Positions 25,531-48,561 of a DNA stretch of 64,000 nucleotides are shown one piece after another (the first letter of the stretch is position 1; each line of letters begins with the position of its first letter). The notes beneath the pieces are model-generated. The model searched no databases. It saw only the letters and a program-made list of their open reading frames with translations, and was not told the origin of the DNA. Position numbers and translations under genes: made by a program. The stretch is taken from contig JAGMCL010000060.1 in assembly GCA_023129165.1 (NCBI GenBank), positions 7,776 to 71,775 on the forward strand. The letters run 5' to 3'. Source of the stretch: a candidate division WOR-3 bacterium (lineage in GTDB: Bacteria; Hydrothermota; UBA3073).

Positions 25531-26631
25531 ATGTTCTATATTATAGCCATACTCTTATCGATTTCCCCTCCTGGTGATGTACGGGCATACGATACACCAA
25601 ATGATGACGGTCAATGTATAACTGTCGAGTGGGACTTATCAACCGATGATGATTTATTGGGTGGTTACGAGATATGGAGAAGTGAAACTCCAGATACAGG
25701 TTTTATAATGGTCGGGTTTGTAGGAAGGGGTATATCACGGTTCAGAGATAGAGACGGCTTAGAAAATAGAATCGAATATTACTATAGGATGAGGGGGCGT
25801 ACAAGAGAATTCGAACACACCGAATTTTGTCTTGTGTCTCCACCAGCGGTCTGTACCTACCAATGGTTTAATACTAACAAGATCAATGTCCTTGTTGCAC
25901 TTGCAATCTTCCTGTCAATTCTACTATATTTTGTTAGAACCGCAAAAAAGGGCAAGGGTTTCTTTGTTAGGAAGATTGCAGGACTGGATGCAGTTGATGA
26001 AGCCGTTGGCAGGGCTACTGAGATGGGCAGAGGTGTTCTATATGTTCCAGGACTATCTACTATGTCTGATGTAGCGACTATTGCATCGATAAACATATTA
26101 CAGAGAGTTGCAAAGAAGGTTGCAGAATACGATACACCTCTTATAGTACCAAACAGGGACCCAATAGTATATATGGTAGCAAGACAGGTTGTTAAAGAGG
26201 GTTATATGGAGGCAGGAAAACCGGATTCTTTTGATGAAGATAATGTCTTCTTCGTTACACAGAGTCAATTCGCATATGCCGCAGCTGTAGATGGTATAAT
26301 GTTAAGAGAAAAACCTGCCACAAACCTATTCTTAGGAATGTTCTGGGCAGAATCACTCCTTTTGGCTGAGACAGGGCATATGACAGGTGCTGTACAGATA
26401 GCAGGCACAGATGCAGTACATCAGCTTCCTTTCTTTGTTACTGCCTGTGATTACACAATCATAGGCGAGGAACTGTATGCAGCATCTGCCTATCTCTCTA
26501 AAGAACCTATCTTGTTGGGTAGTATAAAGGCGCAGGACTGGGGAAAACTAATTATCCTACTTCTGGTAATAGTGGGGATTATAGGGAGTATATTTGGAAC
26601 TCATTTTATTGCAAACCTTCTTACAGTATAA
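25531..26631 (+). CDS. FN3 + DUF6754-like membrane protein
   Basis: AYDTPNDDG FN3-like region; RKIAGLDAVDEAVGRATEMG, AESLLLAE, QLPFFVTACDYTIIGEELYAASAYL. Confidence 0.7.
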   Translation: MFYIIAILLSISPPGDVRAYDTPNDDGQCITVEWDLSTDDDLLGGYEIWRSETPDTGFIMVGFVGRGISRFRDRDGLENRIEYYYRMRGRTREFEHTEFCLVSPPAVCTYQWFNTNKINVLVALAIFLSILLYFVRTAKKGKGFFVRKIAGLDAVDEAVGRATEMGRGVLYVPGLSTMSDVATIASINILQRVAKKVAEYDTPLIVPNRDPIVYMVARQVVKEGYMEAGKPDSFDEDNVFFVTQSQFAYAAAVDGIMLREKPATNLFLGMFWAESLLLAETGHMTGAVQIAGTDAVHQLPFFVTACDYTIIGEELYAASAYLSKEPILLGSIKAQDWGKLIILLLVIVGIIGSIFGTHFIANLLTV

Positions 26632-26666: not shown

Positions 26667-27539
26667 CTAAAAGACAATTTTAATGTAGGAACTTTTATAT
26701 ATCACTTCCTCGTAACCTGCTGTATTTATTACGGCATATTTTGGTATTATAAGTCTCTCTAAAAACCACCCTCCTAATACCCTGGATCTCTTGCTTGATA
26801 GTAACTCATTCTTTGAATAAACCTCAATAGCAAGCTTAGTCTTGAAATTTTGTCTTATTATATCTGCTGTTTCTTCAAGCAGAATGATACCATCTTCAGT
26901 TATCCTGTCAGAATTCTCCTTAAATACCATATTGCCATTGAGAAGAATTATCCACACTCCCTTATCCTTATAAAGGATACCTTTCAGCACAATCTCCCTC
27001 CCAACAACCCTCGATATATTTCCAAGTTTATCATAAGCCTCGCCACTGTATATATAAACTATACCTGGATTCATCATCACTCCCTCATTACTCCTGCCAT
27101 CCCAGTATATAGTTCTTGGGGGAGCACCCTCACCTTCGTAACTTCTAAACTCCGTACCTTTTTCATCTGTTATTACCATCTTCCATATTCTCACATCATA
27201 TCCATAGACAGGGTTAAATAAGGCTACATAATCTCTGACAATTTTTTTGAGCCAGGGTTTAATTATTTGATCTGAGGCGAGCACAGGAAGTGGACTGGAT
27301 GCAATCTCTGAGTTTGAAAGAAGCTGACTATCATATATGTACTCCTCTTCGCCAATAAATGGTATTACTGTCTCATAGGGGTCGAAATCGAGCTCAATTT
27401 GAGGTTTCTTCTCAGCTATAACACCCTTGTATTCTCCCCTTATCTCTTCCTCAACCTTTTCTTCATCCTGTGCTGTTAGATAAAAGACAAACGTAATCAA
27501 GATAAGAGAACTTACTATAAATACTATTCTACTCCTCAT
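26667..27539 (-). CDS. Periplasmic protein with FlgD-like (WDG) domain and degenerate OmpA-like C-terminus
   Basis: WKMVITDEKG...PPRTIYWDGR; VFKENSDRI...LEETADII...LSSKRS, lacking the GHTD motif. Confidence 0.55.
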   Translation of the reverse strand: MRSRIVFIVSSLILITFVFYLTAQDEEKVEEEIRGEYKGVIAEKKPQIELDFDPYETVIPFIGEEEYIYDSQLLSNSEIASSPLPVLASDQIIKPWLKKIVRDYVALFNPVYGYDVRIWKMVITDEKGTEFRSYEGEGAPPRTIYWDGRSNEGVMMNPGIVYIYSGEAYDKLGNISRVVGREIVLKGILYKDKGVWIILLNGNMVFKENSDRITEDGIILLEETADIIRQNFKTKLAIEVYSKNELLSSKRSRVLGGWFLERLIIPKYAVINTAGYEEVIYKSSYIKIVF

Positions 27540-27588
27540 ATAATCATTCCTCCAATAACACTGTTATGTGATTAACTATGACCTATGC

Positions 27589-28542
27589 CTAACCTGATAC
27601 AAGTATATATCTAAAGGTTATCGTTCCTGTATGAGTTATAGGACAGCTTTCCCATCTCCATTTAGCAAGTGTCTTCATAACCAGATTATCCCAATCACTA
27701 TACCCGGAAGTATGAATAATTAGCATTTCGGGTTTTGGCTTACCATCGGGACCAACAGTAACTCTCACCGTCACGACAGCAGATAATCCTCTTTTAAGTG
27801 CCCAATCAGGATAGGAAGAAAGGGGCTTCTTTAAAAGCTTTCTCTCAGCAAGAGCCCCGGCTATTTCCACCTCTGTCGTTGTCTTCTTTTCTGGTGTCGT
27901 CTCTATATCTGTTGTTATTTTTTTCTTACTGAAATCTGCTGTATGCGAATCATCCTTTAACTCTGATATATCCACCTTCTCCAGTTCTATAATCTGTCCC
28001 TTACTACCAGGTGATGTAAAGAGGCCAATCTTTGCATCAAGATCCTCCCTGGTCTTGGGTAGGGCTATAGAGGGTTCTTCAAGTATCTCATTTATTGACT
28101 TACTTTCAGAACCTATACGTACTACCTCAACATCACCTGTCACATCAATGGCTTCGTAAGAATTGAGGTTTATAGTTGCCTGTATATCTGCCAGCTCCTG
28201 TATCTTACCTATATCAATCTTAGCATCTGGTGGGGCAACCTCCATGGGTCTTACTATGTCCAGTTTTTTTAACTCTGCCTCTAATTCTGGATCTATCTTC
28301 TGGCGATTTAATCTATCCCTCAGGGCATCCACAATACTCTTTGTTGGTTCTGGCTGTGATATAGGTTGGGGAGGTTCTTTTATCTTTTTCTCTTCCTCTT
28401 TCTCTTCCTTTTCTTCAATGAACTCGATTCTGTGCAATCGTGCACTCTGCTCTCTGGTTACTGACTGAACCTCAACAAAAAGAAACACACTAACATGAAT
28501 AATAAGCGAGAAAAATATATATCTTGTAAACCTTGTATTCAT
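27589..28542 (-). CDS. TonB-family energy transducer
   Basis: N-terminal TM with S..IH motif, EK/P-rich linker, C-terminal YPDWALKRG...V.VTVGPDG...SGY..D domain. Confidence 0.75.
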   Translation of the reverse strand: MNTRFTRYIFFSLIIHVSVFLFVEVQSVTREQSARLHRIEFIEEKEEKEEEKKIKEPPQPISQPEPTKSIVDALRDRLNRQKIDPELEAELKKLDIVRPMEVAPPDAKIDIGKIQELADIQATINLNSYEAIDVTGDVEVVRIGSESKSINEILEEPSIALPKTREDLDAKIGLFTSPGSKGQIIELEKVDISELKDDSHTADFSKKKITTDIETTPEKKTTTEVEIAGALAERKLLKKPLSSYPDWALKRGLSAVVTVRVTVGPDGKPKPEMLIIHTSGYSDWDNLVMKTLAKWRWESCPITHTGTITFRYILVSG

Positions 28543-28572
28543 AATAGATTTTCACAATCCTGGTATAAAAAA

Positions 28573-28986
28573 TCAATCTTTTCCCTTCTGAGTAGTTGCT
28601 ATTGATATATTATCTACACCAAGTATCTTTGTAACCTGTATCACGGAAAGAACCGTCCCATGATACACATACTCATCTGCTCTTATTAAAACAGGCATAG
28701 ACGGATTATTATCCACTGCATATTTCAAGAGCTCAATATAACCATCCCAATTTGTTTCCGTTCCTCCAGGATTGTCAGGCCATGAGATCTCTATCCTATG
28801 GTCATCTGTTATAGTTATGGATATAGCCTCTTCATTTCTCTCCTCAACTGTGTATGCAGAAGGTAACGAAACCTTGAGGCTCCCAGTCATCGATATAACC
28901 GGAATAGTCACCATGAGTGTTATGAGTATAGTGAAAGCTACATCAGAGAGCGGTGTTACATTTATACGAGCTTTCTTTACCTTCAT
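28573..28986 (-). CDS. exbD: ExbD/TolR family protein
   Basis: INVTPLSDVAFTILITLM (Asp present), VSLPSA, VLIRAD..V.HG.V..V. Confidence 0.85.
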   Translation of the reverse strand: MKVKKARINVTPLSDVAFTILITLMVTIPVISMTGSLKVSLPSAYTVEERNEEAISITITDDHRIEISWPDNPGGTETNWDGYIELLKYAVDNNPSMPVLIRADEYVYHGTVLSVIQVTKILGVDNISIATTQKGKD

Positions 28987-29007
28987 ATGATACCAAGTTG
29001 ATATTAA

Positions 29008-30114
29008 TTAGTACAAAATCTTATTTTCTTTACGCTTAAGAAGTGCAATTTTGACAGCACCTGCAATTTTTGCCCTGTCTATTAAGTCTACAACATCCTT
29101 ATGGTATATTGTGGTATGGGCAGAGATTAAAACTATCCTCATTGGACTGCGTAATAGAAGCTGGTGCATTATTTCATCCTGTCTTTTCCTGTCTTCGGGA
29201 TTATCTATTCTACCGAACACCTCTTCATTTATGAACACAGTACTGTCTCTGGCAATATACATATTTAGTTTTACCTCTGTCTTCTTCTCATCTTTCTGCA
29301 TTGTATGTGCCCTTGCTAACGAAGGTGTCGATACAGCAATATTTGACTGATACATCAATGGAGCAAACATCATAAAGAAAAGTATTAAAAGCATCGCCAC
29401 ACTTATACCCGGGGTCAAGGCCTCTGCTGTAGATGATATATCCTCTCTTTCCTCATAACTTCTTGTTCTCCTCACTCTGGTAGGGGTTTTATCCATTATA
29501 TTCTCTTGAGATAGAATGAGCAGGAGCTCTCTTGAACCAATGAACAGTTTATCAACAATAGAGTCTACATCTTTAGAGAAGTAACCATACATAATCGCTG
29601 CAGGAACTGCAATTATTATACCAATAGCTGTTGTCACAAGAGCAACTGCTATACCAAGCATCATCCCCTTTGGCGAACCACCACCAACAGCTGCCATAGC
29701 CAAAAATGCCTGAATTATTCCTATTACTGTGCCCAGCAACCCAAGCAAAGGTGAGATATATGCTATAGTAGAAAGTGTGCCTACATGGCTTTCAAGTTTT
29801 ATCTTCTCCTCAGAAATACTATAATCCAGTTCGTTGTATAAGGCATCTCTGCTAAGATTAGCCCTAGATAGTCCAGACTTGCAGACTCTTGCAAATGGAT
29901 GATCGGTGGAACCAACATATTCCACCGCACCATTTATATCTTTCCTGGATAAAAAATCTCTTATCCTTCCAAGAAACACATCATAGTTAAATCTCATTCT
30001 CAAGAGAAGAACTAACCTATCAAGTATAGCGCCTAATGAAATGATAGAAATAATAGCAAGAGCTATTATTATAGGATTCTTTATAAGATCAAATATGAAA
30101 ACACCAAGAATCAT
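29008..30114 (-). CDS. ExbB-ExbD fusion protein
   Basis: ExbB core (SPLLGLLGTVIGIIQAF...ALVTTAIGIIIAVPA) in frame with an ExbD-like module (ALTPGISVAMLLILFFM...VLISAH...VVDLIDRAKIAG). Confidence 0.8.
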   Translation of the reverse strand: MILGVFIFDLIKNPIIIALAIISIISLGAILDRLVLLLRMRFNYDVFLGRIRDFLSRKDINGAVEYVGSTDHPFARVCKSGLSRANLSRDALYNELDYSISEEKIKLESHVGTLSTIAYISPLLGLLGTVIGIIQAFLAMAAVGGGSPKGMMLGIAVALVTTAIGIIIAVPAAIMYGYFSKDVDSIVDKLFIGSRELLLILSQENIMDKTPTRVRRTRSYEEREDISSTAEALTPGISVAMLLILFFMMFAPLMYQSNIAVSTPSLARAHTMQKDEKKTEVKLNMYIARDSTVFINEEVFGRIDNPEDRKRQDEIMHQLLLRSPMRIVLISAHTTIYHKDVVDLIDRAKIAGAVKIALLKRKENKILY

Positions 30115-30121
30115 ATAATCA

Positions 30122-30745
30122 TTACCTCTTTCCTGACTTGCTCAATATCACCATCAATTCCTTTGAGGCAATTTCAATTCTCTGAATAATTGAATCAACC
30201 CTGCCGGAGAAAACACTAAATAATATAGCTGATGGAACGGCAATTATTATGCCTGTAGCAGTGGTAAGTAGTGCAACTGCAACGCCTGACATCATGGCAG
30301 TAGGGTCTGTGCCCCCTGCCTCTGCCATACCTGAGAAGGCTTGTATAATACCGACAACTGTTCCGAGAAGCCCGAGAAGTGGGGCTATAAAGGCAATCGT
30401 TGAAAGTATCCCCACCCTGGTCTCCAGTTCCGCCCTCTCTTTCATCTGAGCCTTCTCAAGAGTATCATAGGTATCTTCTCTCGTAAGAGAAGACGTCTTA
30501 AGTCCTTCATACAATACCCTTGTAAGGGGTGAATTCTCAGTTCTACATTGATTGATTGCTGAGTCCAATCCCTCCTTTTCTATCTTTCTCTCTATCTCCT
30601 GCATTATCCTGCTTTCGTCAAATCTAACCTTTCTGAGATTAACAAACCTTTCAATTGCCACAACAATCATAACTGCTGCAGTTATTAGTAATACGATTAT
30701 CCATGGTGAAGTCAAAAGTCCAACCAAGGTCGTTCCTGGTAGCAT
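30122..30745 (-). CDS. exbB: MotA/TolQ/ExbB proton channel protein
   Basis: APLLGLLGTVVGIIQAF...GVAVALLTTATGIIIAVP. Confidence 0.85.
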   Translation of the reverse strand: MLPGTTLVGLLTSPWIIVLLITAAVMIVVAIERFVNLRKVRFDESRIMQEIERKIEKEGLDSAINQCRTENSPLTRVLYEGLKTSSLTREDTYDTLEKAQMKERAELETRVGILSTIAFIAPLLGLLGTVVGIIQAFSGMAEAGGTDPTAMMSGVAVALLTTATGIIIAVPSAILFSVFSGRVDSIIQRIEIASKELMVILSKSGKR

Positions 30746-30854
30746 GTTCCCTCCTGCTTATAATAATCTACAGTAAAACACAATTTCAGAGAACACATAG
30801 ATTCTAATGATTTATAAGATATTTCTTCCTCTTAGAATACTAAGTATATAGGAC

Positions 30855-33335
30855 CTATTCTCCGAACCTTGTAATATACTCCTGTGCCTTTTCTTCATCT
30901 CCTATAGCTTGATACGTCTTTGCAATATACCTTCCAGCTTTATTGTATTCCTCACCATCCGGATATTCTGCAAGCACCTTTTTGAAAATCCTTAAAGCAT
31001 CCTCGTAACTTCCAAGATTATAATAAACAACACCCATGATATTAAAAGCTGATGGCACCTTATCGCTCTCAGGGAAATACCTTATAAACTTCTCAGCCTC
31101 CTCTAATTCCTTCATTGGCTGTTTCAACTTGGCGTATGAGAGGATTATATAGTACTGTGCATCTTCAGCATATGGACTCTCTGAAAAGTTCGTAACCAAT
31201 TTTCTAAACTCAATAACTGCATTCGCATAGTTCTCGTCATTAAAGGCACTTCCAGCCCTTATCCACTGTGCCTCAGCAGCATATTGTGATGATGAATGCT
31301 CATTAATAAGTATATCAAGTGCCTCGGGGTTATCCTGCCCTAACATATAATATGAAAGTTCCATCTGGTCTTTTGCTGTTTGTGCTTGTGGAGACTCTTG
31401 ATACAGGATACTGTATTTATCATACTCCCTTATCGCGTTTACATAGTCTCCTGCATTGAAATAAGTGGCTCCCAACTGGAACTGTGCCTCACTGGCAAGC
31501 TCTGACTCCGGGTATTGATTTACCACCAGCCTGAAGTGGTTAATTGCCTTGGTATATTCTGCTGCTTGTTTATACGTAACAGCGAGATCAAAGGCAGCAT
31601 AAGGTGCCTTCTCTGACTCGGGGTAGTTAATTAACACCTTTTCCCAGTAATCAATGGCATTTGCATATTTTTGTGTAACGAATAATGCTTTCCCACCATA
31701 GTAGTATGCATCACCGGCAATTGGACTATCCTGAAATTCATCCCCAATACCAAATAGGAAGACCTGGTATGCTTCGTCATATTCGCCCATATTGAATGAT
31801 GCTATACCCCAGCCATAGAGTGACGCTATAGCAAGAGATGTGTCAGAACCATATCTCTGAAACGCAGACTCAAAAATGTCCTTTGCAGTATTATATCTAC
31901 CCTCTTCAAGTATACACCACCCCTTACTCACATATGCAGGTGCCTTAAGTAAGACAACTTCGTCGTAGTCCTTTAAAACGCTTTCATAGAATGTTTTTGC
32001 CTTTGCTATCCTGTCCATATAATAATAAAGCTCACCTAAAAATAACTTTGCTCTACCAACCCAGATTCCGCCTTTTGATTCAATTAGATGTTCGAAGGAA
32101 CTTGATACAGAAGCTCCTTCGTTATAATCCTGCATTAGATTGTAAGAGTACACCATCATTGCATATGCTGGTATAGCAATCTCTGATATGCTAAAATATC
32201 TTAATATATTTTGAAACCTCTCTATTGCCTCGGTATACCTCTTATCAGAAAGAAAGGTTACTCCTGCAAGATAATCTCCCATACCCGCAAAAGAACCCGT
32301 TGGATAAATACTTGACATCTGATTGAATGCTATAAGAGAATTCAGGGTATCCCCAAGTGCTATATAAGATCTGCCGTATTCAAAATTAGCTATGGCAGCC
32401 ACTCTCAAGTCCGGATAACTGGATTTTGCCTCTTGAAACATTGTAATCGCTTCGTTAATCCTACCAGTTTCAGTAAGTGCCTTACCAATCATATAGATGG
32501 AGTGGGCTGCAAGAAATCTATCCCTCGAATCTGTAGAATATTTATAACAGAACAACGAGGCCTCATAATCACCTTCATGAAAATAACAACATCCTAATTT
32601 ATACCTGGAGTACTCCTTAAGATGACTCCATGGATACTTCTCTATAAAAAACTCATACTTTTCGATGGCTCCAGCATAATCTTTATTATAAAACAGGGCA
32701 TCAGCCATTCCATAGTGACAATATTCAGCAAAGTTTTCATCCTTAAAGCTGTTAGCCAGTTTTTTATATATGGCAAGTGCCTGTAGAGGCTTTCCGAGGC
32801 GCGCAAGACATTTTGCCTTATAGAATAAACCCTCTTTTGTAACTGCATCCTCAAAAAACACCATAGCCTCTTCGTATCTACCCTCAAAATATAATAATAT
32901 ACCTTTACCCGAAAGAATTCTCTTATCCTCCGAGTATCCTGGAAATTCATCTATCTTTTTAACAAGATATTCCTTCGCCCTCTCTGAATCACCTCGCGCA
33001 AGATAAGCCATTCCACAGGCATATATTGCCTCGGGAGCTATATATGAACTCTCATGTTTATCTATTAGGTCTCTGAAAGTATATATAGCCTCGTTATACT
33101 CACCAAGGTTATAATAACACTCTCCAATACGATATAATGCTTCGGGCGCTGTTTCATCAAAGCCTGTTAGTAATTTGTATCCCTTTATTGCATCTTCATA
33201 CTGGTGGTGAGCAAAAATCACCTCCACCTCCTCAAGCCTTTCCACAGGTGTCTTTGAAACCACTGCATATACAGGTTGGAATACTATAATCAACAATAGA
33301 TTATATAAAAATATATATCTTCTTAAACCATTCAT
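30855..33335 (-). CDS. Exported long TPR protein (BamD/CpoB-like repeats)
   Basis: Signal peptide; many A.Y..G..Y...G.Y..A...F...YP.S repeats. Confidence 0.85.
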   Translation of the reverse strand: MNGLRRYIFLYNLLLIIVFQPVYAVVSKTPVERLEEVEVIFAHHQYEDAIKGYKLLTGFDETAPEALYRIGECYYNLGEYNEAIYTFRDLIDKHESSYIAPEAIYACGMAYLARGDSERAKEYLVKKIDEFPGYSEDKRILSGKGILLYFEGRYEEAMVFFEDAVTKEGLFYKAKCLARLGKPLQALAIYKKLANSFKDENFAEYCHYGMADALFYNKDYAGAIEKYEFFIEKYPWSHLKEYSRYKLGCCYFHEGDYEASLFCYKYSTDSRDRFLAAHSIYMIGKALTETGRINEAITMFQEAKSSYPDLRVAAIANFEYGRSYIALGDTLNSLIAFNQMSSIYPTGSFAGMGDYLAGVTFLSDKRYTEAIERFQNILRYFSISEIAIPAYAMMVYSYNLMQDYNEGASVSSSFEHLIESKGGIWVGRAKLFLGELYYYMDRIAKAKTFYESVLKDYDEVVLLKAPAYVSKGWCILEEGRYNTAKDIFESAFQRYGSDTSLAIASLYGWGIASFNMGEYDEAYQVFLFGIGDEFQDSPIAGDAYYYGGKALFVTQKYANAIDYWEKVLINYPESEKAPYAAFDLAVTYKQAAEYTKAINHFRLVVNQYPESELASEAQFQLGATYFNAGDYVNAIREYDKYSILYQESPQAQTAKDQMELSYYMLGQDNPEALDILINEHSSSQYAAEAQWIRAGSAFNDENYANAVIEFRKLVTNFSESPYAEDAQYYIILSYAKLKQPMKELEEAEKFIRYFPESDKVPSAFNIMGVVYYNLGSYEDALRIFKKVLAEYPDGEEYNKAGRYIAKTYQAIGDEEKAQEYITRFGE

Positions 33336-33408
33336 AGAAACTTTCAGTATTTATAAATATGGAAAGATATACAGATATTAATTTTGGAAGAGGGATATAG
33401 AGCTCCAT

Positions 33409-34788
33409 CTACTCTTGTTCTTCTGATGTTTCATTCTCATTCTTTTCCTCAGGTGGAGTCTCTTGCTCGGGGGATTCGGTTTTCTCTCTTATCTCCTCCT
33501 TTATAAGTTCGGGTTTTTCTCCCATTGGAGTCATTATTATCGTTCCTTTTGGTCCTACCGTTTTAAGTGTTACGAATGCATCCTCACACTCATAGACCCT
33601 TTCAGTTCTCTCTTCAGTAACCCTATACTCGAAGTAATAATTACCATCCTCCACAAATATACCGTTATTATCTTTACCATCCCATGCAATCCTATAAGGG
33701 GGTGGGCCATACGCGCCCATTCTCCGTACAGGGGTTCTATATCTGTCCTTAATTATGACCTCCCACTTCTGCACCTCTCCTCTTATATTCGTTTCAAAAA
33801 CAAGCCATGCAAGATTCTCTCCACCTTCACTCATTGGTGAAAACGCAACCTTTGGTGTCCGTGCTCTCACCCTGAATCCTCCAAATTCAAAAGATATTGA
33901 GATGTTATGGGCTGGTGATAGTAAAGAAGATGATTCATAGTGGTAAGCACCTGCATAATCTATCTTAATTGTATATCTGTCCATATCCCTTTTCAATCCA
34001 ACCCCGTATGTGAATTTATACTGATCCATTCCACCTCTTACAGCCATTGAATATAACGGCTTGTATTCAAATCCCATGTGAAATAGCGGAAGTTTTTTTT
34101 CTGAGACAAGGACATCACCACACATCGCAAACATATCACGGTATGGACGAAACGAGAAGCCAATTCTTGCAGATATCGGGGTAGTCTGGGTTTCATTTAT
34201 AAGTGTCCATGAGGGACTTATAAGATTCTGTCCAGATACACCAAAAGAGAACCATCCTGAAGGAAACAGAAGAAGCCCAAGGTCCAAGCCGTGGCCAACC
34301 CCTGACTCATTCATCATTGCCTCGTATAATATCTTATAAGAAATACCCGCTGAAAACCAGCTCTTAATACTAAGAGCATACGTTAACATAGGAGCAATAT
34401 TTGTGTATGTGAAGGTTCCTCTTGGTACCGCTTCCTCAGCAGGATAGCGGTCAATCTTACTTGAGTGCAATGCAAGGAGACCTATACCAAAGTTGCCAAT
34501 TTCTTTGGTTGAAAAGGTATAACTTATAGCCTCAAGCGACAGATTGCTGCTCATGTAAATCATAGAGTGCATAAAGGTTACTCTGTGTCTTTCAACACAG
34601 GATAGACATGCGGGGTTATAATACGAAGAAGATGCATCATCGGCAAGTCCTGTTATTGCTCCTGCCATAGCAAGACCTCTGCTGTCAGAACCCCATGAGA
34701 CGAATACATCCCCGGGCATACCACCATCATTCTCTGCATTTAATAATACCGGTATGAATATGATTAGCAGTAGTATATAATTCCTCAT
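33409..34788 (-). CDS. PorV/PorQ-like (FadL-fold) outer-membrane barrel fused to a C-terminal FlgD-like domain
   Basis: SRGLAMAGAITGLADDASSSYYNPACL hatch motif, amphipathic strands, then FSP...W.VII.D...IAWDGKDNNG..V.DG.Y. Confidence 0.7.
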   Translation of the reverse strand: MRNYILLLIIFIPVLLNAENDGGMPGDVFVSWGSDSRGLAMAGAITGLADDASSSYYNPACLSCVERHRVTFMHSMIYMSSNLSLEAISYTFSTKEIGNFGIGLLALHSSKIDRYPAEEAVPRGTFTYTNIAPMLTYALSIKSWFSAGISYKILYEAMMNESGVGHGLDLGLLLFPSGWFSFGVSGQNLISPSWTLINETQTTPISARIGFSFRPYRDMFAMCGDVLVSEKKLPLFHMGFEYKPLYSMAVRGGMDQYKFTYGVGLKRDMDRYTIKIDYAGAYHYESSSLLSPAHNISISFEFGGFRVRARTPKVAFSPMSEGGENLAWLVFETNIRGEVQKWEVIIKDRYRTPVRRMGAYGPPPYRIAWDGKDNNGIFVEDGNYYFEYRVTEERTERVYECEDAFVTLKTVGPKGTIIMTPMGEKPELIKEEIREKTESPEQETPPEEKNENETSEEQE

Positions 34789-34835
34789 TATTAGAGTCCC
34801 TGTTAACTCCGGATTTATTAAAATCTTATGGCTTT

Positions 34836-35603
34836 CTACCTCATCACACCAAGACCCATCTTTAGTGCGTTTTGCGCTCCGGCACCTTCAAAAGTAATTA
34901 TAAGGTTATATACACCATTTGCGACCTTTATATCATCCTCCCTCTTCCCATTCCATACAAGATAGAAGTAATCATCTTCTTCCCATTTATTAAATCCAGA
35001 GAGATAAGATTCCTTACTCCATATAAGATGTCCGAAGGCATCATAAATCAAGATTGTAGTATTTGTTTCTCCTGATACACTTTCGGGTCTTTTAAAAACA
35101 ATTTTAGTAGTATCACACATCGGGTTAGGATAGGCAAATATATAGGGTAATTCTTCATCTTTAGACTCAGAAACTCTGGATATACCTTCATCTTGGTCAA
35201 ATCTATTCCCAATGTCGATAGGGGGTAAGGTTAAACCTGGTTTGACCTCAAAACTATTACTTGTATCTATCAATGCCTCTCCAGCATCTGCGATAATTGA
35301 TACGCTATCTGAAGAATATAAAACAGATACCTTAATTTCATTTATCCCTTCTGAGAGAATCAATGAACAGGGAGAAAGTAATCTTCGGCTTGGCTCAGAT
35401 AGACCAGGAGAAATAACATAAAGGCTGCATGTTATATCCAGGGGGTTAGAGTTTTCTGAATCTCCATCCAGAACCACCTTTATATTAAATGGAACGCCCT
35501 CTTGTTTTGGTGTATCAAGTGGTTCAATTCTCAGCCTTGGTTGGAGTTGAGAAAAAAGTGGAAGACCAAAAACAAGAAGAATGGGTATTAAAAACCCTTT
35601 CAT
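34836..35603 (-). CDS. Secreted protein with C-terminal sorting/FlgD-Ig domain; first gene of the operon
   Basis: Signal peptide MKGFLIPILLV; AYPNP...IYDAFGHLI...WNG...VANGVY. Confidence 0.65.
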   Translation of the reverse strand: MKGFLIPILLVFGLPLFSQLQPRLRIEPLDTPKQEGVPFNIKVVLDGDSENSNPLDITCSLYVISPGLSEPSRRLLSPCSLILSEGINEIKVSVLYSSDSVSIIADAGEALIDTSNSFEVKPGLTLPPIDIGNRFDQDEGISRVSESKDEELPYIFAYPNPMCDTTKIVFKRPESVSGETNTTILIYDAFGHLIWSKESYLSGFNKWEEDDYFYLVWNGKREDDIKVANGVYNLIITFEGAGAQNALKMGLGVMR

Positions 35604-35610
35604 ACCTGAT

Positions 35611-35685
35611 ATTATAACATCTTTTTTACAATTTGTCAAGTTTTTAAAAAAATTTCTTGCATTTTATAGAAAAATATGATATAAT
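35611..35685. promoter_or_regulatory. Back-to-back sigma70 promoters
   Basis: Minus TTGACA-17-TATAAT (35611-35639); plus TTGCAT...TGaTATAAT (35657-35685). Confidence 0.65.
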
Positions 35686-35701
35686 TCCATCAGGAGATAT
35701 C

Positions 35702-36817
35702 ATGTATACTTTTTTCTTAATATTTATATCGTTCCTTACCCTGCCAGAAATAGACTTTGTATATGCTCCAGGTACATTTATAGGTGACAAGGGGTTAGAG
35801 TTGCGCGTATTCCTCAATATAGATGTTGGAAAATTAACACTTATAAAAGAGGGTGAAGATTTCAATACGGCTTATTCTATCTCTATTATTCTAAAGAAAG
35901 ACAACAGGGAAAGAGGTAACATATGGATGAAAAAGATAGAAGGACTGGCGTATGGAGCAAAACAAACACTCTATGATACAATTACTATAGATATATTACC
36001 AGGCTGTTATGATATGACCATAATCATCTCCGATTTGAACTCTCAGAAATCCATGGAAAAGAAGAGTGAACTTCTGGTCGATAGTCTATCATCTGATTTT
36101 TCAATATCGAGTTTTATTCTTGGAAAATATGACAATTTGATAACCGATAATGCCGTCACAAACATAGATGGAATCTCGTGCTATCTGGAGGTCTATTCAG
36201 ATAAAGAGGCAATGTTTTATTTCACTGCTGAAGATTACAACGATAGCATTTCTATAACTCCTGGAATGACACCAATCACTATGAAACCAGTAATAAACAA
36301 ATTAACCAATAATTTTGTCACTCTTACTGCAGTTATACGGGAAGACGGGAAGAGTTTTGAAAGGGTTGATACTGTTTTTATAGGTAGTACTATTTTTGCA
36401 GATGATAATCTATACAAGAGTAAAATAAATGCACTGATGTATATCTTCGATACTCCAAAGTTAGATACGCTACTCCTAGCTAAACCCGAGAAAAGAGATA
36501 GTCTCTGGGGAGCCTTCTGGAAATTCTATGACCCCACTCCTGAAACTGACAGGAATGAACTTGAGGATGAATATTTGGCAAGAATTAACTATGTGGAAAA
36601 TTATTTAGGAGGTTGGCAAACAGATATGGGTAGAGTCTGGTTAGTAATGGGAATGCCGGATGAAATTGATAGACATCCGTTCGAACTGGAAGTCTGGGCG
36701 TATGAGATATGGTATTATTATTCTATAAACGAAAAATTTATTTTCTACGATACGCATGGACTCGGCTGGTATGAGCTTATATATCCCGAAAACTGGAACC
36801 CCTGGAGAAGTAAATAA
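35702..36817 (+). CDS. GWxTD domain protein
   Basis: FWK..DPTPET.RNE...EY..RI.Y...GWQTDMGRVW...G.PD...YEIWYY; AGGAG RBS. Confidence 0.85.
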   Translation: MYTFFLIFISFLTLPEIDFVYAPGTFIGDKGLELRVFLNIDVGKLTLIKEGEDFNTAYSISIILKKDNRERGNIWMKKIEGLAYGAKQTLYDTITIDILPGCYDMTIIISDLNSQKSMEKKSELLVDSLSSDFSISSFILGKYDNLITDNAVTNIDGISCYLEVYSDKEAMFYFTAEDYNDSISITPGMTPITMKPVINKLTNNFVTLTAVIREDGKSFERVDTVFIGSTIFADDNLYKSKINALMYIFDTPKLDTLLLAKPEKRDSLWGAFWKFYDPTPETDRNELEDEYLARINYVENYLGGWQTDMGRVWLVMGMPDEIDRHPFELEVWAYEIWYYYSINEKFIFYDTHGLGWYELIYPENWNPWRSK

Positions 36818-36835: not shown

Positions 36836-39232
36836 ATGAAAATCATTGCTCCACTTCTAATACCAATCATTATATTTGCTGTTGAGGTTAACATTCCTAC
36901 TGCAGATTACAGTTTTGATAATGGACTGTTGTGCATGGATGGCTTTGGCCATACACCTGGTTTCACCCTTCCAGTCAGGGTTTTTCCAATAATAATACCG
37001 CCAACAATAGAAATATATCAGATCGAGGTAAGTGGTTTCCCTTCTACCATATTAGAATTCAGCCCTAACCTAACCCAATATGCAATCCAAAGAGCCCCTT
37101 TGGAGTCATTAAAAATAGATAGTTCATTCAATAGGAACATGGCTGTTGTTTTACCCTCGATGATATTTAATGATAATGTAATACATCCAGTAATAATATA
37201 TCCTTTTTTCTACAACGAGAATGACGAATTAACACATACACCAGTTATTAACATAAATATAGGTCTTAATATAGACAATCTATCGCTTCCTTCTTATCCA
37301 TTCGGAAGAAATGAAGATAACAAACATCTCTGTATCCTGACGATTCCATCGATTGAGTCCATTCTTGAAAACTTTATTTCTAGAAAAGTATCTTTAGGGT
37401 ATAAGGTTTCTGTTCTTATAGTTCCACCCTTAGTGGATGCTATAGAGATTCGCAAACTTATTAAAGAGAGATATATCGAATGGGGGTTTTCTCATCTTCT
37501 GATAATCGGTAATTACGAGTCAATACCACAATTTCAATACCGGGAAGTAAATACGGATTTCTTTTACGGTGAACTCACATCGGATATGCAGGACAGGCTT
37601 GAACCATTCGCCGAGGTCGCTGTTGGTCGGATACCCTATACTGAACCCCAGGCTGTAGAGTGTCTACTTTCGAATTCGATTCTCTTTCAGATAAGAGATG
37701 AAAAGAAGGATATATTTTTCTCAATCACTGAAGACATGGTTTCACCTGAATTCATAAAAGATATGTACAGTCTTTTCAGTCCCTATAATGTTGACTGCGA
37801 TATTCCAGGGGGTGAATATAGTGTATATATAGAACATACACTCAACGTAAGATTAGATATCCCTCTTGAGAATGCTATTATAATATCTACTACTGCTCAT
37901 TCTGCTGATTTACTCTTGAAGAAATACGGAAATCGAGCAGCATGTATAATTGCCCCAACCTCTGACTCATATCTAATGCCCCGTAACCCTGGTGGTACCT
38001 CAACCTACTTATATAACATATTGAAAAATCTCCTGTTAGAGGATATGAGTATAGGAGAGGCAATAAGATTGGGTGCAATAGATTACTGGATGGAATATCC
38101 CGATTCCTTTACAGAGAAAAATATTGCAAGTTTTCATATCTTTGGAGACCCTACAAATACATTCAAAATCGCCCAATTAGAGGATGTAGGTTTAAAAGAT
38201 GTTCTCTGTATCCCTTTCAGGGTTGAACCTGGCAAGAGTCTTTCTCCAACAGTTATCGTGAAAAACTTTGGGGATAAAACAGCCTATAATGGTAAGGTTA
38301 TTGTTGAGATTAAAAAGGATGGAGATATCCTATACTCTGAAATTGTTGACATATTAGATATCAAACCAATGGATGAAAGAGAAATAGACTTCCCTGAGTT
38401 TGTTATGTGTGAAGGAACCCTACATATAATCATATCAACAATATTCCCAGGGGATTTCAACGCATCAAATGACATAGTAGAAAAGACAATACTTTCAGGT
38501 TTCGATGTTCCGATTGTAATATCAACCGATACATTATATGCAAATCTTTTTATGGAATCCTTATCACAGGAGGCGTTCTTTTCAACTGATACGTCATACA
38601 GAGGGGAATTGAGGAATGTATTTTTTTTAGAACCCTTTCAGGCAGTGGGTGAGAATATATACATAGAGGGATTTATCCCTGATAAAGACTACAGTGGGAG
38701 GATCGATGGTATTGGAAGATTTGCTGGATATTCATTTGAGTATAATGGACCACTCTCATCTGGTCTGCCGGATTGGTTAAACTATGACAGTCTCTCTATT
38801 GCAATGGTAGATACAGATGGAAATCCTGTGGCATTCAACCAGGGTTCTTATTTTATATTTCTTGGTAGGGCATTGTATTTGAACCAACCAGCCCTGTTTC
38901 TGAGCATTATAAGAGCTGATTTTGATATAAAAACAGGCACTCTAAAGGATACATTAACAACCCTGTTCGAATGTAACCCAAATCCAACAAGGGGTGAAAC
39001 AGCGATATTGTTTGAGATACCTCTTGATGATATTCAAGTCACTCTATCCATATATGACATAACAGGACACCTCGTCAAGAAACTTGTAGACAAGAAATTT
39101 TCCATGGGTATCTATTCCTATATATTTGATGGTCTTGATTCCGCCGGGAGGGAACTTGTAACCGGTACATATTTTATCAGTCTCTCACTTGAGGGTATAA
39201 CATTCACAAGAAAACTTATAAAACTAAGGTAG
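36836..39232 (+). CDS. C25 (gingipain-like) protein with CARDB/Ig and C-terminal sorting domain; catalytic dyad looks degenerate
   Basis: HLLIIGN, TDFFYGEL, EVAVGRIP, SIGEA and FHIFGDPT motifs; no GHG or AC motif recognisable. Confidence 0.7.
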   Translation: MKIIAPLLIPIIIFAVEVNIPTADYSFDNGLLCMDGFGHTPGFTLPVRVFPIIIPPTIEIYQIEVSGFPSTILEFSPNLTQYAIQRAPLESLKIDSSFNRNMAVVLPSMIFNDNVIHPVIIYPFFYNENDELTHTPVININIGLNIDNLSLPSYPFGRNEDNKHLCILTIPSIESILENFISRKVSLGYKVSVLIVPPLVDAIEIRKLIKERYIEWGFSHLLIIGNYESIPQFQYREVNTDFFYGELTSDMQDRLEPFAEVAVGRIPYTEPQAVECLLSNSILFQIRDEKKDIFFSITEDMVSPEFIKDMYSLFSPYNVDCDIPGGEYSVYIEHTLNVRLDIPLENAIIISTTAHSADLLLKKYGNRAACIIAPTSDSYLMPRNPGGTSTYLYNILKNLLLEDMSIGEAIRLGAIDYWMEYPDSFTEKNIASFHIFGDPTNTFKIAQLEDVGLKDVLCIPFRVEPGKSLSPTVIVKNFGDKTAYNGKVIVEIKKDGDILYSEIVDILDIKPMDEREIDFPEFVMCEGTLHIIISTIFPGDFNASNDIVEKTILSGFDVPIVISTDTLYANLFMESLSQEAFFSTDTSYRGELRNVFFLEPFQAVGENIYIEGFIPDKDYSGRIDGIGRFAGYSFEYNGPLSSGLPDWLNYDSLSIAMVDTDGNPVAFNQGSYFIFLGRALYLNQPALFLSIIRADFDIKTGTLKDTLTTLFECNPNPTRGETAILFEIPLDDIQVTLSIYDITGHLVKKLVDKKFSMGIYSYIFDGLDSAGRELVTGTYFISLSLEGITFTRKLIKLR

Positions 39233-43609: not shown

Positions 43610-44800
43610 TTATAGTCTCCTCTCCACATATATCTCTTCTTCAAGTCTTGAGAGAAGATAGTTTAGTTTTTCTATTGTCTTTCTCTGTGATAGAAGATTC
43701 TTTAAGTCTTCCTTTACTTCCTCAAAACTGGGATGTCTTGATTCCTTTTTATCATAAATCTTAGCCACATAAATACCATCCTCATGCTCAATAATTTTGG
43801 TTTCACCACCTATTGGAATATCTTCAAAGAAAGGGGGTATGGGAAGATAACCACTGCCATCAGATATAGTTATTATTCTTTCATCCCTCTCTGGAACCTT
43901 ACCCAATTCAATTGAATCTTTTATCTGTGAAGCAAATGACAGCACTCTCAACGAATCCTCTTTTGTGGGGGTAAGTATGAAAATAATACTCCTTAGTGAT
44001 ACACGATTTCCCATCTTCATATCACAACGTAGAAGGTGTACTGCACCCAAGGTCTGTATCAATCTTATTTCACCCGCGCTCATATTTTCTATTTCCTGTC
44101 TGAATAAAGGATCAAGGTCATCTATATCTACAGTTCCAAGACTACCCCCACGCTGCCTTGTAATTGGATCTTCGGAGTAAGTCATTGCAAGTTCACTGAA
44201 ATCCTCGCCAGCAAGAATTTTACTGTTAACCTTTTCTATAAGAACTTCCTTTTCCTTTAATGTTTTCTCACCTGGTATTATCGGTAAAAACACACTGGAA
44301 TATCTTGCAACTGTCGGGATATCTGGGATTGATTCAGGATAGGTCTCATAATAGTGCAGTGCTGTTATGTCTGAAGTAGATAATATGCCAAATTTCTTCT
44401 GAATAAGTGCCCTTACTATTAGATTGCTCTCTACATCGTCCCTGTAATATTCCCTAAGAACATCTTCTGTTATGCCTAGCCTCTGTAACTCTGAATAAAA
44501 AGCATCAGGAGATGGAAAATTCTCCTTAAGGGAATTAATAGTATTTGATAATGCATCCTCAACTGCCTGGTCGCTAACTGATAGTGTCTCCTCCTCAGCA
44601 GCGATAAGAAGAAGCTTTGTCTGAATGATACTCTCGAGCATCTGCTCTTTTGATTCCTGTGTAACAGGTAACCCTGTCAAATTCAGTTTTTGCTCTATCT
44701 CGCTCAATGTTATCGCCTCTTTATCTACCACTCCAATTATTCTATCTGTTTTGGAAAACAGAATGGCCGGAATGATTAGTATGATTAAATATCTCCACAT
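43610..44800 (-). CDS. SurA-like chaperone / parvulin PPIase
   Basis: DRIIGVVDKEAITLSE N-domain; GEDFSELAMTYSED...GGSLG. Confidence 0.8.
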   Translation of the reverse strand: MWRYLIILIIPAILFSKTDRIIGVVDKEAITLSEIEQKLNLTGLPVTQESKEQMLESIIQTKLLLIAAEEETLSVSDQAVEDALSNTINSLKENFPSPDAFYSELQRLGITEDVLREYYRDDVESNLIVRALIQKKFGILSTSDITALHYYETYPESIPDIPTVARYSSVFLPIIPGEKTLKEKEVLIEKVNSKILAGEDFSELAMTYSEDPITRQRGGSLGTVDIDDLDPLFRQEIENMSAGEIRLIQTLGAVHLLRCDMKMGNRVSLRSIIFILTPTKEDSLRVLSFASQIKDSIELGKVPERDERIITISDGSGYLPIPPFFEDIPIGGETKIIEHEDGIYVAKIYDKKESRHPSFEEVKEDLKNLLSQRKTIEKLNYLLSRLEEEIYVERRL

Positions 44801-45167
44801 AATCGGACACGGTAATCTCATCCTACGCATCTGTCATTGCGAGCGAATGCAATGAGCGTGGCAATCTCATCCTTTAAATTCTTGACTTCCTTAACAGTCT
44901 AAAGACTGTCACCCCTGTTTAGTTTCTTTAGACTCCAACAGATGGGATTGCTTCGCCTGCCTGCCGGCAGGCAGGTCGTCCGTCAATCGACGGACTCCTC
45001 GCAATGACAGAAATCAATTCCTGTCGTTTGCAATATTAGCACGGCAATCTAATTAATCTTTGTAATACTATTTCAATTGAATTTATTATCTCACCTAATA
45101 TTCTCTGTTTCACAATTCTCATGTCTAAAAACAAGCAGACATCTGGTAAGTAATGCACAACCTGAGA

Positions 45168-45980
45168 TTATTTTATAAGCTCGTAATATACTTCTACGGG
45201 AATCTCTTCTCTAAGTTGTTTAACAAGCGAGTCAACAACAGCTATCTGTTTCGCCATTAGTAACTGGTTTTTTATACCCTCTTTTATGTTCTCAAATTTA
45301 GGTGGATTACTCAACCTTTTCCTTCCAAGGAGCTTTATAATATGAAAACCCCGTTCAGTCTGTATTATATCCGATATATCACCTATTTCTCTAAGCGAGA
45401 ATGCAGCATCATCAAAACCAGTGAGTGCAATATCACCGAGTTTTACATATCCAATAACTCCTCCATCGGCTCCGGAGTTATCTATTGAATATTCCCTTGC
45501 TATCTTACTAAAATCAGCACCTTCATCTATTCTTTTCTTCAACTCTATTGCATCAAGTTTTGTGCTTGAAACTATGTGTGCCACCTTTATCTCATTATCG
45601 AATGCCTGTCTATTAAACTCGTAGAAATCCTTTACATCAATGTCACTCACAGATATTTTGTCATATGTATTTTGGTTCAACCAGTAGTTTATAACAATCT
45701 GTTTCTTCAATTGTTCAATCTGGTCGGCTATTTCACTATTCTCCAGTGTGCCTTCACTTATAGCCTTCTCATAAACAAGCTCTGTACCTATCCAATTCTC
45801 AATAAGGCTTATTTTATCTTCATGCGAGATAGTTGCTAGATATTCAACTGGTAAAGCAGACTCAAATTTTTCAAGAGTAAGCGTAGTCTTACCCACTCTG
45901 GCTATTACCGTTCCCTCTTCCTTTTTGCATCCCAGAAATAATATGATAAATATGGTAACAATCAGTGATAATTTTTTCAC
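45168..45980 (-). CDS. Parvulin-type PPIase lipoprotein
   Basis: Lipobox FLGC; AHIV...GADFSKIAREYSID...GG.IG...IIQTERGFHIIK. Confidence 0.85.
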   Translation of the reverse strand: MKKLSLIVTIFIILFLGCKKEEGTVIARVGKTTLTLEKFESALPVEYLATISHEDKISLIENWIGTELVYEKAISEGTLENSEIADQIEQLKKQIVINYWLNQNTYDKISVSDIDVKDFYEFNRQAFDNEIKVAHIVSSTKLDAIELKKRIDEGADFSKIAREYSIDNSGADGGVIGYVKLGDIALTGFDDAAFSLREIGDISDIIQTERGFHIIKLLGRKRLSNPPKFENIKEGIKNQLLMAKQIAVVDSLVKQLREEIPVEVYYELIK

Positions 45981-46016
45981 GATACCTCCGTTGTGTACTT
46001 GATTAAACTACAAATT

Positions 46017-47603: not shown

Positions 47604-48083
47604 ACCTCCCCCTTTCCAAGATAATAGTATTGTCAAAAATCTAACCACAGAGAGCACAGAGGAATATAGAATAATAAAGAATCGCAGGAAATTTTCATCC
47701 CTCCCCTCTGTGACCTCTTTATCCGTCTATCGTCGGACAGGTAAAACTAATCTCTTTACTTAATATTTTATCGCCATTCTGTTATTTTTAGACGCTGATT
47801 TACACTGATTGTTTTTTACTTCAAAGTTTTTTATTTATCTGTGAACCAAAGGTCGCCGTTAGGCAACATCTGTGATTATCTGTGGTTAATTTTAGTCTTT
47901 TGGGGAGAGCACAGAGAACTAAATTTACTCTGTGACCTCTGTGGTTTGTCATATTCAATTTGATACTACTAAGATAATATCTAGATTTCTTAAAATACAC
48001 TCTTTTGAATTTGGTGATAATTATAACACAAAAGGGTAAAAATGTCAAGAAAAATTGTTACCTTTAAATTCTAACCATACTCC

Positions 48084-48542: not shown

Positions 48543-48561
48543 TTGATTTATTTCCAAGTTC

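Follow-up and report, generated by a model that had tools for sequence, protein, structure and literature searches.

The stretch of DNA analysed here, hereafter the window, comprises 64,000 nucleotides from the genome of a candidate division WOR-3 bacterium (3.03 Mb, 153 contigs, 94% complete) and contains, at positions 26667-35603, eight open reading frames (ORFs), g1 to g8, arranged in tandem on the minus strand. The eight genes join a motor of the ExbB-ExbD-TonB type to an outer-membrane barrel of the PorV/PorQ family, a protein with a C-terminal domain (CTD) of the T9SS (type IX secretion system) kind, a large tetratricopeptide repeat (TPR) protein and a protein combining an immunoglobulin-like (Ig) domain with an OmpA-like domain. 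This gene set, so-called module in what follows, is a real and deeply conserved unit, inherited throughout the candidate phylum WOR-3, and it is best read as a proton-driven machine of the cell envelope that varies on the Ton/Tol/Agl theme. A literature search returned no description of such an operon, nor any paper joining WOR-3 with type IX secretion.

The operon and its products

The operon comprises the following features:

35611-35639, minus strand: sigma-70-type promoter, TTGACA-17-TATAAT with a TG extension (12/12 consensus matches)
34836-35603, minus strand: g1, secreted protein of 255 aa carrying a divergent CTD of T9SS type and an N-terminal part without known domain (CHU_C, Por_Secre_tail, own CTD profile)
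33409-34788, minus strand: g2, 459-aa PorV/PorQ-family 14-stranded outer-membrane barrel with a C-terminal FlgD-type Ig domain (about residues 306-408) and an acidic tail (NF033709, AlphaFold model)
30855-33335, minus strand: g3, TPR protein of 826 aa, its repeats of the YbgF/CpoB and BamD types, with a signal peptide seen by eye (TPR_6, TIGR02795)
30122-30745, minus strand: g4, 207-aa ExbB/TolQ-type proton channel subunit (MotA_ExbB)
29008-30114, minus strand: g5, 368-aa ExbB-ExbD1 fusion, with the transmembrane Asp of ExbD1 replaced by Ser (MotA_ExbB and ExbD)
28573-28986, minus strand: g6, 137-aa ExbD2 that keeps the transmembrane Asp (ExbD)
27589-28542, minus strand: g7, 317-aa TonB/TolA-like transducer composed of an S-x3-H anchor, a spacer rich in Glu, Lys and Pro, and TonB_C (TonB_C, TIGR01352)
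26667-27539, minus strand: g8, 290-aa periplasmic protein with a signal peptide, a conserved segment (24-96), an Ig domain (105-201) and an OmpA/MotB/DotK-like domain (202-289; model and Foldseek)

The intergenic gaps, from g1 to g8, measure 47, 73, 109, 7, 21, 30 and 49 bp. The promoter, read from 35639 to 35611, is the sole 12/12 site among 48 promoter-like sites found between 26400 and 36000 (shuffles, 30.9 +/- 5.4). The TTG given as the start of g1 in a program-made ORF listing is the -35 box of this promoter and the gene starts at the ATG at 35603, so that the end coordinate of the operon in an earlier note, made from the letters of this DNA, is correct. The consensus promoter and the gaps of 7-109 bp predict that g1-g8 form one transcription unit, and the layout described in that note, eight co-oriented and closely spaced genes behind a consensus promoter, is confirmed. 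Its identification of the parts also holds, including the FlgD+OmpA-like label for g8, which is correct at the level of the fold, and its remark that the operon lacks a TonB-dependent receptor, TolB or Pal gene is borne out by a Pfam scan, in which the operon proteins gave no match to a Plug/TonB-dependent barrel domain, TolB or Pal.

The motor genes g4-g7 all score above the Pfam cut-offs, comprising (i) g4 with MotA_ExbB (110.1 bits), (ii) g5 with MotA_ExbB (108.8 bits) and ExbD (41.9 bits), (iii) g6 with ExbD (76.6 bits), and (iv) g7 with TonB_C (36.8 bits), the latter also exceeding the cut-off of TIGR01352 (28.7 against 27.1 bits); the operon thus contains the whole domain set of a TonB system, MotA_ExbB, ExbD and TonB_C, in one unit. 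The S-x3-H motif, which is defining for the TonB/TolA anchor, is present in 10 of the 11 N-termini of the TonB-like protein inspected, and its histidine, His16 in g7, is invariant in 24 aligned orthologues. The fusion protein g5 served as query against 41 related genomes and is full-length in nine, all of them of this genome's own class, so a fusion created by misassembly or frameshift was rejected; duplication of ExbB and its fusion to ExbD1 are restricted to this class, the order elsewhere among the 41 genomes being ExbB-ExbD1-ExbD2.

A regular pattern appears in the ExbD pair. Inspection by eye of the N-termini from the window and 15 related loci disclosed that exactly one of ExbD1 and ExbD2 has the transmembrane Asp in all 16 modules: ExbD2 retains it in ten (ExbD1 displaying Asn or Ser) and ExbD1 in the other six (ExbD2 displaying Cys or Gly), the Asp-bearing copy varying with the clade, as in reciprocal loss. 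In contrast, both ExbDs encoded by the canonical TonB locus of this genome, on contig C52, have the transmembrane Asp (also by eye). The rule of one Asp per ExbD pair, with the copies swapped among clades, provides a testable clue to how a heterodimeric stator may work.

At the head of the operon, the C-terminus of g1 matches CHU_C (24.5-24.7 bits) and Por_Secre_tail (18.1-18.3 bits), in both cases under the Pfam cut-offs; in NCBIfam, it matches PorU and PorZ alone, at the CTD end of each model. A CTD profile built from nine proteins of the window matches g1 with 27.7 bits at its extreme C-terminus, and on the window's contig it matches 12 ORFs, all of which, judged by ORF length, lie in the window, g1 among them, in agreement with the earlier count of about 12 CTD-bearing secreted proteins.

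The barrel g2 belongs to the PorV/PorQ family by its score with the PorV_fam model NF033709 (100.7 bits over residues 29-302, cut-off 90), and a FlgD_ig-like stretch is matched at residues 331-388 (24.8 bits). Its scores with the PorV model NF033710 (17.9 bits, cut-off 250) and the PorQ model NF033711 (49.7 bits, cut-off 220) stay below threshold, and it is missing from the PorV-model matches of the genome, 15 matches in 14 ORFs at E <= 1e-5 and none at the cut-off; among the approximately 17-20 PorV_fam paralogues of this genome it is one of the lower-scoring. The AlphaFold model (27 sequences, predicted local distance difference test (pLDDT) 79.9) displays approximately 14 strands, an Ig sandwich at residues 306-408 and a disordered acidic tail, with an N-terminal helical segment at the position of the FadL hatch. 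In Foldseek searches with this model, PorV of the SprA translocon complexes comes first (8gl6_F, E 6.6e-11; 6h3i_F) and FadL next; structural alignment with VIA-align gives, for FadL 3pgr, Z 31.2 with a root-mean-square deviation (rmsd) of 3.0 over 271 aligned residues, for PorV 8gl6_F, Z 30.9 with an rmsd of 4.5 over 284, for a second PorV chain, Z 30.8, and for FadL/TodX transporters in general, Z 28-31. FadL-like barrels of Bacteroidota BAM complexes (9n2d_B, 9hjm_F, 9hiv_F) also match the model, at Z 25.5-27.1. In a set of 5.8 billion proteins, the named full-length orthologues of g2 come from WOR-3 alone, and shorter PorV/PorQ proteins come from KSB1 and Zixibacteria.

The earlier note had reckoned as a point against itself the possibility that the barrel would model as an ordinary FadL transporter. 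The fold is a tie in this respect, and the sequence favours PorV/PorQ over FadL, since the PorV_fam score reaches 100.7 bits while that with Toluene_X (24.6 bits) remains under the cut-off of 29.7. The tie, the helix at the hatch position and the complete ExbB-ExbD-ExbD-TonB set in the operon lend themselves to a TonB-energised importer in which the barrel would be the channel and g1 a CTD-held surface protein capturing the substrate, by analogy with SusCD/RagAB or BtuBG. We consider such an importer rather unlikely in view of the family assignment of the barrel by sequence; in addition, no FadL-family transporter is known to require TonB, the giant TPR protein and the OmpA-like protein are without a role in known importers, and the g1 orthologues, of 149-577 aa, display no recognizable binding or enzyme domain.

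The TPR protein g3 matches TPR_6 (199 bits), BamD (179 bits) and, most strongly, the YbgF model TIGR02795 (250.3 bits, cut-off 90.1), the score being split over 10 stretches of its 826 residues; with PorW/SprE it reaches 75.7 bits (cut-off 250). On the other hand, g8 gave no Pfam or NCBIfam family match at E 0.01, its homologue P0006 bearing a precomputed PF00691 match, and its architecture was read from an AlphaFold model (19 sequences; pLDDT 71.4 overall and 79-91 over residues 200-270) that comprises a signal/anchor helix, an unmodelled segment at residues 24-96, strongly conserved among homologues, a β-sandwich (105-201) and an α/β domain (202-289). Foldseek relates the α/β domain to MotS (9ljm_A, E 7.4e-6, target TM 0.58) and also to PA0833, MotB, PomB, DotK and OprF, pointing to an OmpA/MotB C-terminal fold that the Pfam model PF00691 does not pick up in g8 itself; the sandwich resembles FlgD (E 4e-4), and among solved chains the closest by sequence is the OmpA-like domain of Legionella DotK (E 0.016). 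Inspection by eye indicates that the usual loop preceding the N-x2-L-S-x2-R motif is missing.

Relatives of g8 in the 5.8-billion-protein set are all from WOR-3 where named, some being 97% identical. A search of representative proteins, beside the g8 and barrel searches, returned 926 at E <= 1e-10; the best 150 of the 926 are mostly long multi-Ig proteins matched over the Ig domain alone, and 26 of these 150 match in a single stretch, with lengths of 279-332 aa. Look-alikes in a protein atlas include OmpA-like proteins labelled WOR-3 or Elusimicrobiota and Spirochaetota proteins with FlgD_ig+OmpA (at 0.87-0.89), and serve as leads, no more.

The Ig domains of g8 and of the barrel are homologous (hhalign 99.0%, E 9.5e-18), and both are related to the CTDs of the cargo proteins of the window (95.4% for the barrel Ig, 89.4% for that of g8). 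Since the homologous Ig domain of g8 is joined to an OmpA-like domain, g2 and g8 look like the two parts of a split anchor. A joint action of g2, g8 and g3 is supported by natural fusions: (i) in a 579-aa protein on contig C100 of this genome (L017:625-2364, minus strand), a PorV_fam barrel (168 bits) is united with a CarboxypepD_reg domain, which is Ig-like, and with OmpA (62.4 bits), (ii) the metagenomic protein P0145 unites PorV_fam (115 bits) with an OmpA-like domain, and (iii) the metagenomic protein P0133 unites PorV_fam (108 bits) with TPR repeats. A complex prediction with barrel residues 24-411, g8 residues 25-290 and, as the scored partner, residues 222-317 of the TonB-like protein gave 0.00 in both runs and, being without controls, has no bearing either way.

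Conservation of the module and its separation from Tol-Pal and TonB loci

Fifteen loci at class and phylum level were tested by tblastn with the window proteins. Nine preserve the whole barrel-TPR-ExbB-ExbD-TonB-like-g8 run in the same order, three are interrupted by contig ends and have all the genes that fit, and three, from one genus, have the motor, the TonB-like gene and g8 alone. In a genome of this genus (G016), a second locus encodes a pair of FlgD_ig proteins, an ORF of 461 aa that ends in a FlgD_ig domain, a TPR protein of 842 aa and a protein with a strong Peptidase_C25 match and Por_Secre_tail; by its gene content this locus is the other half of the module, with the 461-aa ORF as a candidate barrel.

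In a wider survey, a g8 profile matched 97 of the 151 WOR-3 genomes sampled and 79 of the 122 of high quality, a few of the weakest matches spanning the Ig domain alone. Most matched genomes display a second match, to about profile positions 120-190, in a frame of 400-490 aa located 5-7 kb upstream, which corresponds to the Ig domain of the barrel. Twenty further loci were selected for carrying both matches on one contig and consequently inform on gene order and not on frequency; tblastn found the barrel, ExbB and g8 in all 20, the TonB-like gene in 18 and the TPR gene in 17, the remaining three having an ORF of 823-928 aa at that position. The gene directly upstream of the barrel has a C-terminal FlgD_ig, CHU_C or Por_Secre_tail domain in 18 of these 20 loci, an adjacency from which g2 is predicted to be the partner of the CTD protein g1; across the 20 loci, genes in this position encode 149-577 aa with a variable N-terminal part, in which no enzyme or binding domain was matched. 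The gene set is thus syntenic in relatives, complete in nine of the 15 related loci and recovered in the 20 selected ones, and the loss of synteny that the earlier note had named as a point against its proposal is not seen.

The ExbB phylogeny and the remaining loci of this genome set the module apart from the housekeeping systems. When 26 ExbB sequences are placed in a tree, the 17 copies from modules group in a single clade (support 94/96) that excludes the TolQ of this genome (C29) and its other ExbBs (C52, C87, C33), the two copies of the window, from g4 and g5, being sisters (82/67). Elsewhere, the genome contains Pal-YbgF-TolQ-TolR on C29, where a Pal-like OmpA protein is encoded, a TolA-like gene and TolB (305.6 bits) on C75, ExbB-ExbD-ExbD-TonB on C52, and eight TonB-dependent receptors, all on contigs other than that of the window. 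The module was therefore rejected as the Tol-Pal or main TonB system of this genome, and the presence of both systems elsewhere makes it an additional one.

Compared to the TonB-ExbB-ExbD system, the module likewise comprises MotA_ExbB, two ExbDs and a TonB-like protein with S-x3-H, a charged spacer and TonB_C, in the same ExbB-ExbD-ExbD-TonB order as the canonical C52 locus; it differs in lacking a TonB-dependent receptor, in having one ExbD always without the Asp, in its own ExbB clade and, within its own class, in the duplicated ExbB with one copy fused to ExbD1. Towards Tol-Pal with CpoB/YbgF, the likeness lies in the trans-envelope, proton-driven design, in TolQ, TolR and YbgF as top models and in an OmpA-like protein encoded by the last gene; on the other hand, the module has neither TolB nor a Pal lipoprotein and carries about 10 YbgF-type repeats in one 826-aa protein.

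These likenesses allow a second Tol-Pal-like system, with a TolQ/TolR/TolA-type motor, a CpoB/YbgF-like TPR protein and the barrel plus the Ig-OmpA-like protein as a substitute for Pal, which would tether or constrict the outer membrane, for example in division or envelope integrity. The best NCBIfam models of the ExbB and ExbD proteins are TolQ (86.1 and 90.0 bits) and TolR (64.8 bits), that of g3 is YbgF, g8 ends in an OmpA/MotB-like fold, barrel-OmpA fusions exist, and the TonB_C and TolA C-terminal domains share a common fold. The TolQ and TolR scores are nevertheless far under the equivalog cut-offs of 221 and 127.3 bits, a separate Tol-Pal set exists on C29 and C75 with no TolB in or near the module, approximately one third of the sampled WOR-3 genomes lack the module, and a conserved CTD-tagged gene at the head of the operon would be of no obvious use to a tether; we therefore regard this alternative as unlikely.

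Two further loci relate to the motor genes. An operon in genome G011 (L100:9183-11151), located directly after efp, encodes ExbB, ExbD and a PorV_fam barrel (180.7 bits; 124 bits with the PorV model) with overlapping stop and start codons, and provides a second link between ExbBD and such a barrel within the phylum; its ExbB is the sister, in the tree, of the C87 ExbB of the present genome. A paralogous unit on contig C33 (L028:437-6881) comprises a 904-aa TPR protein, ExbB, ExbD, ExbD and an SBP_bac_5 solute-binding protein, and the 7.8 kb of this contig contain neither a TonB-like gene nor a barrel or g8.

Type IX secretion in WOR-3 and the possible role of the module

The earlier note proposed a whole-genome search for SprA and GldK/L/M/N, which found SprA and no GldKLMN motor. 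SprA is a 1771-aa frame on contig C108 (439.8 bits in total, cut-off 200) and is unlinked to the module in this genome. Among 3116 ORFs with a length of 100 aa or more, the CTD profile matches 161, always at the extreme C-terminus, and Peptidase_C25 has 20 matches, mostly in frames of 1000-1500 aa with one of 2905 aa; several C25/PorV_fam pairs share a contig, e.g. C85. No match to GldM, GldL, GldN or GldM_1st was obtained in this 94% complete genome, and 14 control genomes without a T9SS gave none either; PF03781, which represents the GldK-type FGE-sulfatase domain, was unmatched in this genome at E 0.01, with control matches in 3 of the 14 genomes. Across the 151 WOR-3 genomes, SprA is found in 147, GldM in none, and GldL at the cut-off in none, with 13 sub-threshold matches in long ORFs, the GldM and GldL searches having been run without a positive control. 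As far as testable here, the lineage appears to bear a T9SS without the known motor; the presence of SprA and many CTD cargo proteins with no detectable GldKLMN sharpens the question of what powers the T9SS outside Bacteroidota.

It is tempting to regard the module as that source, i.e. as the motor of the WOR-3 T9SS, replacing GldLM/PorLM and the GldKN ring and driving CTD cargo via SprA, as the earlier note suggested. SprA and 161 CTD-tagged ORFs are present, the Gld components went unmatched in the searches just described, the module includes a PorV-family barrel and a CTD protein, and C25 (PorU-like) genes lie next to the outer-membrane part of the module in two arrangements, one in its own family and the other in G016. 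The distribution argues otherwise: SprA occurs in 147 of 151 genomes and g8 in 97, so that 52 SprA-bearing genomes have no g8 match, and six of these (G026, G027, G032, G033, G038 and G039) have a single ExbB match each. In G026 and G027 this single locus is an ordinary ExbB-ExbD-ExbD-TonB operon, which in G026 (3 contigs, 100% complete) adjoins a SusC-like receptor. This distribution does not support the module as the general T9SS motor. In addition, its barrel reaches a mere 17.9 bits on the PorV equivalog and falls outside the PorV-model matches of the genome, the module is unlinked to SprA, and the GldL/M/N searches lacked a positive control; we judge this role quite unlikely. What stands of the T9SS-like machine proposed earlier is the T9SS-type barrel, the CTD protein gene upstream of it, SprA and the undetected GldKLMN; its use of the module in place of GldLM is not supported.

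In the T9SS, PorU pairs with PorV and PorZ with PorQ. Type B CTD proteins pair with PorP-type barrels (PMC9143113), with which PorE acts (PMC12773672, PMC9143113); PorE of P. gingivalis comprises TPR, WD40 and CRD as well as OmpA_C-like domains (PMC12773672). As in these attachment pairs, the module places a CTD protein gene beside the gene of a PorV/PorQ-family barrel, and the TPR and OmpA_C-like domains united in PorE, a single periplasmic partner, are distributed over g3 and g8. Unlike the attachment pairs, the module adds an ExbB-ExbD-ExbD-TonB motor and its barrel has a periplasmic Ig domain of its own; the equivalog cut-offs of PorV, PorQ, PorE and PorW are all far from being reached by the module proteins.

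We read the module, tentatively and with a probability of about 0.45, as an accessory Ton/Tol-type proton-driven trans-envelope machine whose outer end would be a T9SS attachment-type pair, inherited throughout WOR-3. Ton, Tol, Mot, GldLM and Agl share a common 5:2 proton motor and differ in their outputs, to which the module would add another, a T9SS-type barrel with a CTD protein instead of a TonB-dependent receptor. In such a machine, an ExbB ring, made in this lineage of ExbB and the ExbB-ExbD1 fusion, would surround an ExbD1/ExbD2 heterodimer with a protonatable Asp on one partner only, and this stator would power the TonB-like transducer g7. The g1 protein would presumably be exported via SprA, with g2 as its cognate barrel in the place of a TonB-dependent receptor; g2 (barrel-Ig, with the Ig in the periplasm) and g8 (Ig-OmpA-like) would form a split 'barrel-Ig-OmpA' wall anchor, and g3 is a likely inter-membrane scaffold. 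Proton flow through ExbBD would make the TonB-like arm pull the barrel/g8/TPR assembly, and the pulling could drive a conformational cycle in which the cognate surface protein would be loaded, held in place, moved or let go.

Several points weigh against this machine. This genome has so many PorV_fam barrels (about 17-20), C25 proteins (20) and CTD proteins (161) that some of the adjacency may be due to chance, and the 20 further loci, chosen for linkage, cannot serve as a measure of how often the genes stand together. The CTD matches of g1 are sub-threshold in Pfam and its surface location is an assumption; the contacts among the proteins and the output of the machine are, like that location, what we infer from genes and models. 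The g2 model lies equally near FadL transporters and PorV, which leaves room for an import role, the absence of an own Pfam OmpA match and of the usual loop makes wall binding by g8 uncertain, and the top rank of TolQ and TolR for the ExbB/ExbD proteins and of YbgF for the TPR protein fits a Tol-like tether.

A machine for surface motility or transport, analogous to Agl-Glt/Nfs of Myxococcus, in which an outer-membrane complex together with its adhesin would travel along the cell, driven by the motor, is also worth weighing. Luciano et al. 2011 (PMC3169522) describe an Agl-Glt 'core complex' (aglR, aglQ, aglS, gltD, gltE, gltG, gltC) in Myxococcus and other bacteria, whose function outside gliders they give as not known. 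The inventory of this complex (PMC3169522), in which one TolQ-like protein, a pair of TolR-like proteins and one TonB-like protein are clustered with large TPR proteins, is that of the module, and the module includes an outer-membrane barrel and, assuming that g1 is exposed, an exposed protein; its outer end differs, being made of a barrel of the PorV family, a CTD protein and an Ig-OmpA-like protein. In the NCBIfam search, the only Glt model matched by the operon proteins is GltE, with 21.6 bits where the cut-off is 225. Furthermore, g1 is small and without an adhesin domain, the operon has no genes for a cytoplasmic track or regulators, and the core complex is by itself unlikely to drive motility, as stated by Luciano et al. 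(PMC3169522), so that this explanation seems to us very unlikely.

Returning to the accessory proton-driven machine with a T9SS-type outer end, a bolder extension would place it in a wider scheme, in which WOR-3 run a large T9SS secretome (SprA and ~160 CTD proteins per genome) without GldKLMN, Ton-type motors power the energy-requiring steps, and the operon is a self-contained, proton-powered T9SS 'station' whose TonB-like arm acts directly on a PorV/PorQ-type barrel, serving as shuttle or anchor, so that the cognate CTD protein is loaded or released. We consider this scheme rather improbable; if true, it would represent a second, independent mode of energising type IX secretion.

Neighbouring genes in the window

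Two genes lie upstream of the operon and diverge from it:

35657-36817, plus strand: GWxTD-domain protein (TIGR04514, 76.2 bits)
36836-39232, plus strand: 798-aa CTD-tagged protein (TIGR04183, 31.2 bits) with a partial Peptidase_C25 (46.2 bits, profile positions 3-144 alone)

The pair is syntenic with the operon in G002 and G003 alone, i.e. within its own family, and both genes were rejected as core parts of the module on these grounds. At the other end, a DUF6754 membrane protein (398 bits; 25531-26631, plus strand) is encoded convergently with g8 across a 35-bp gap, a position also kept in G002 and G003. Further away, at 43610-48557 on the minus strand, three SurA/PpiD-like peptidyl-prolyl isomerase genes (406, 270 and 546 aa) lie beside an LptE-like gene, a run that looks like an outer-membrane biogenesis cluster.

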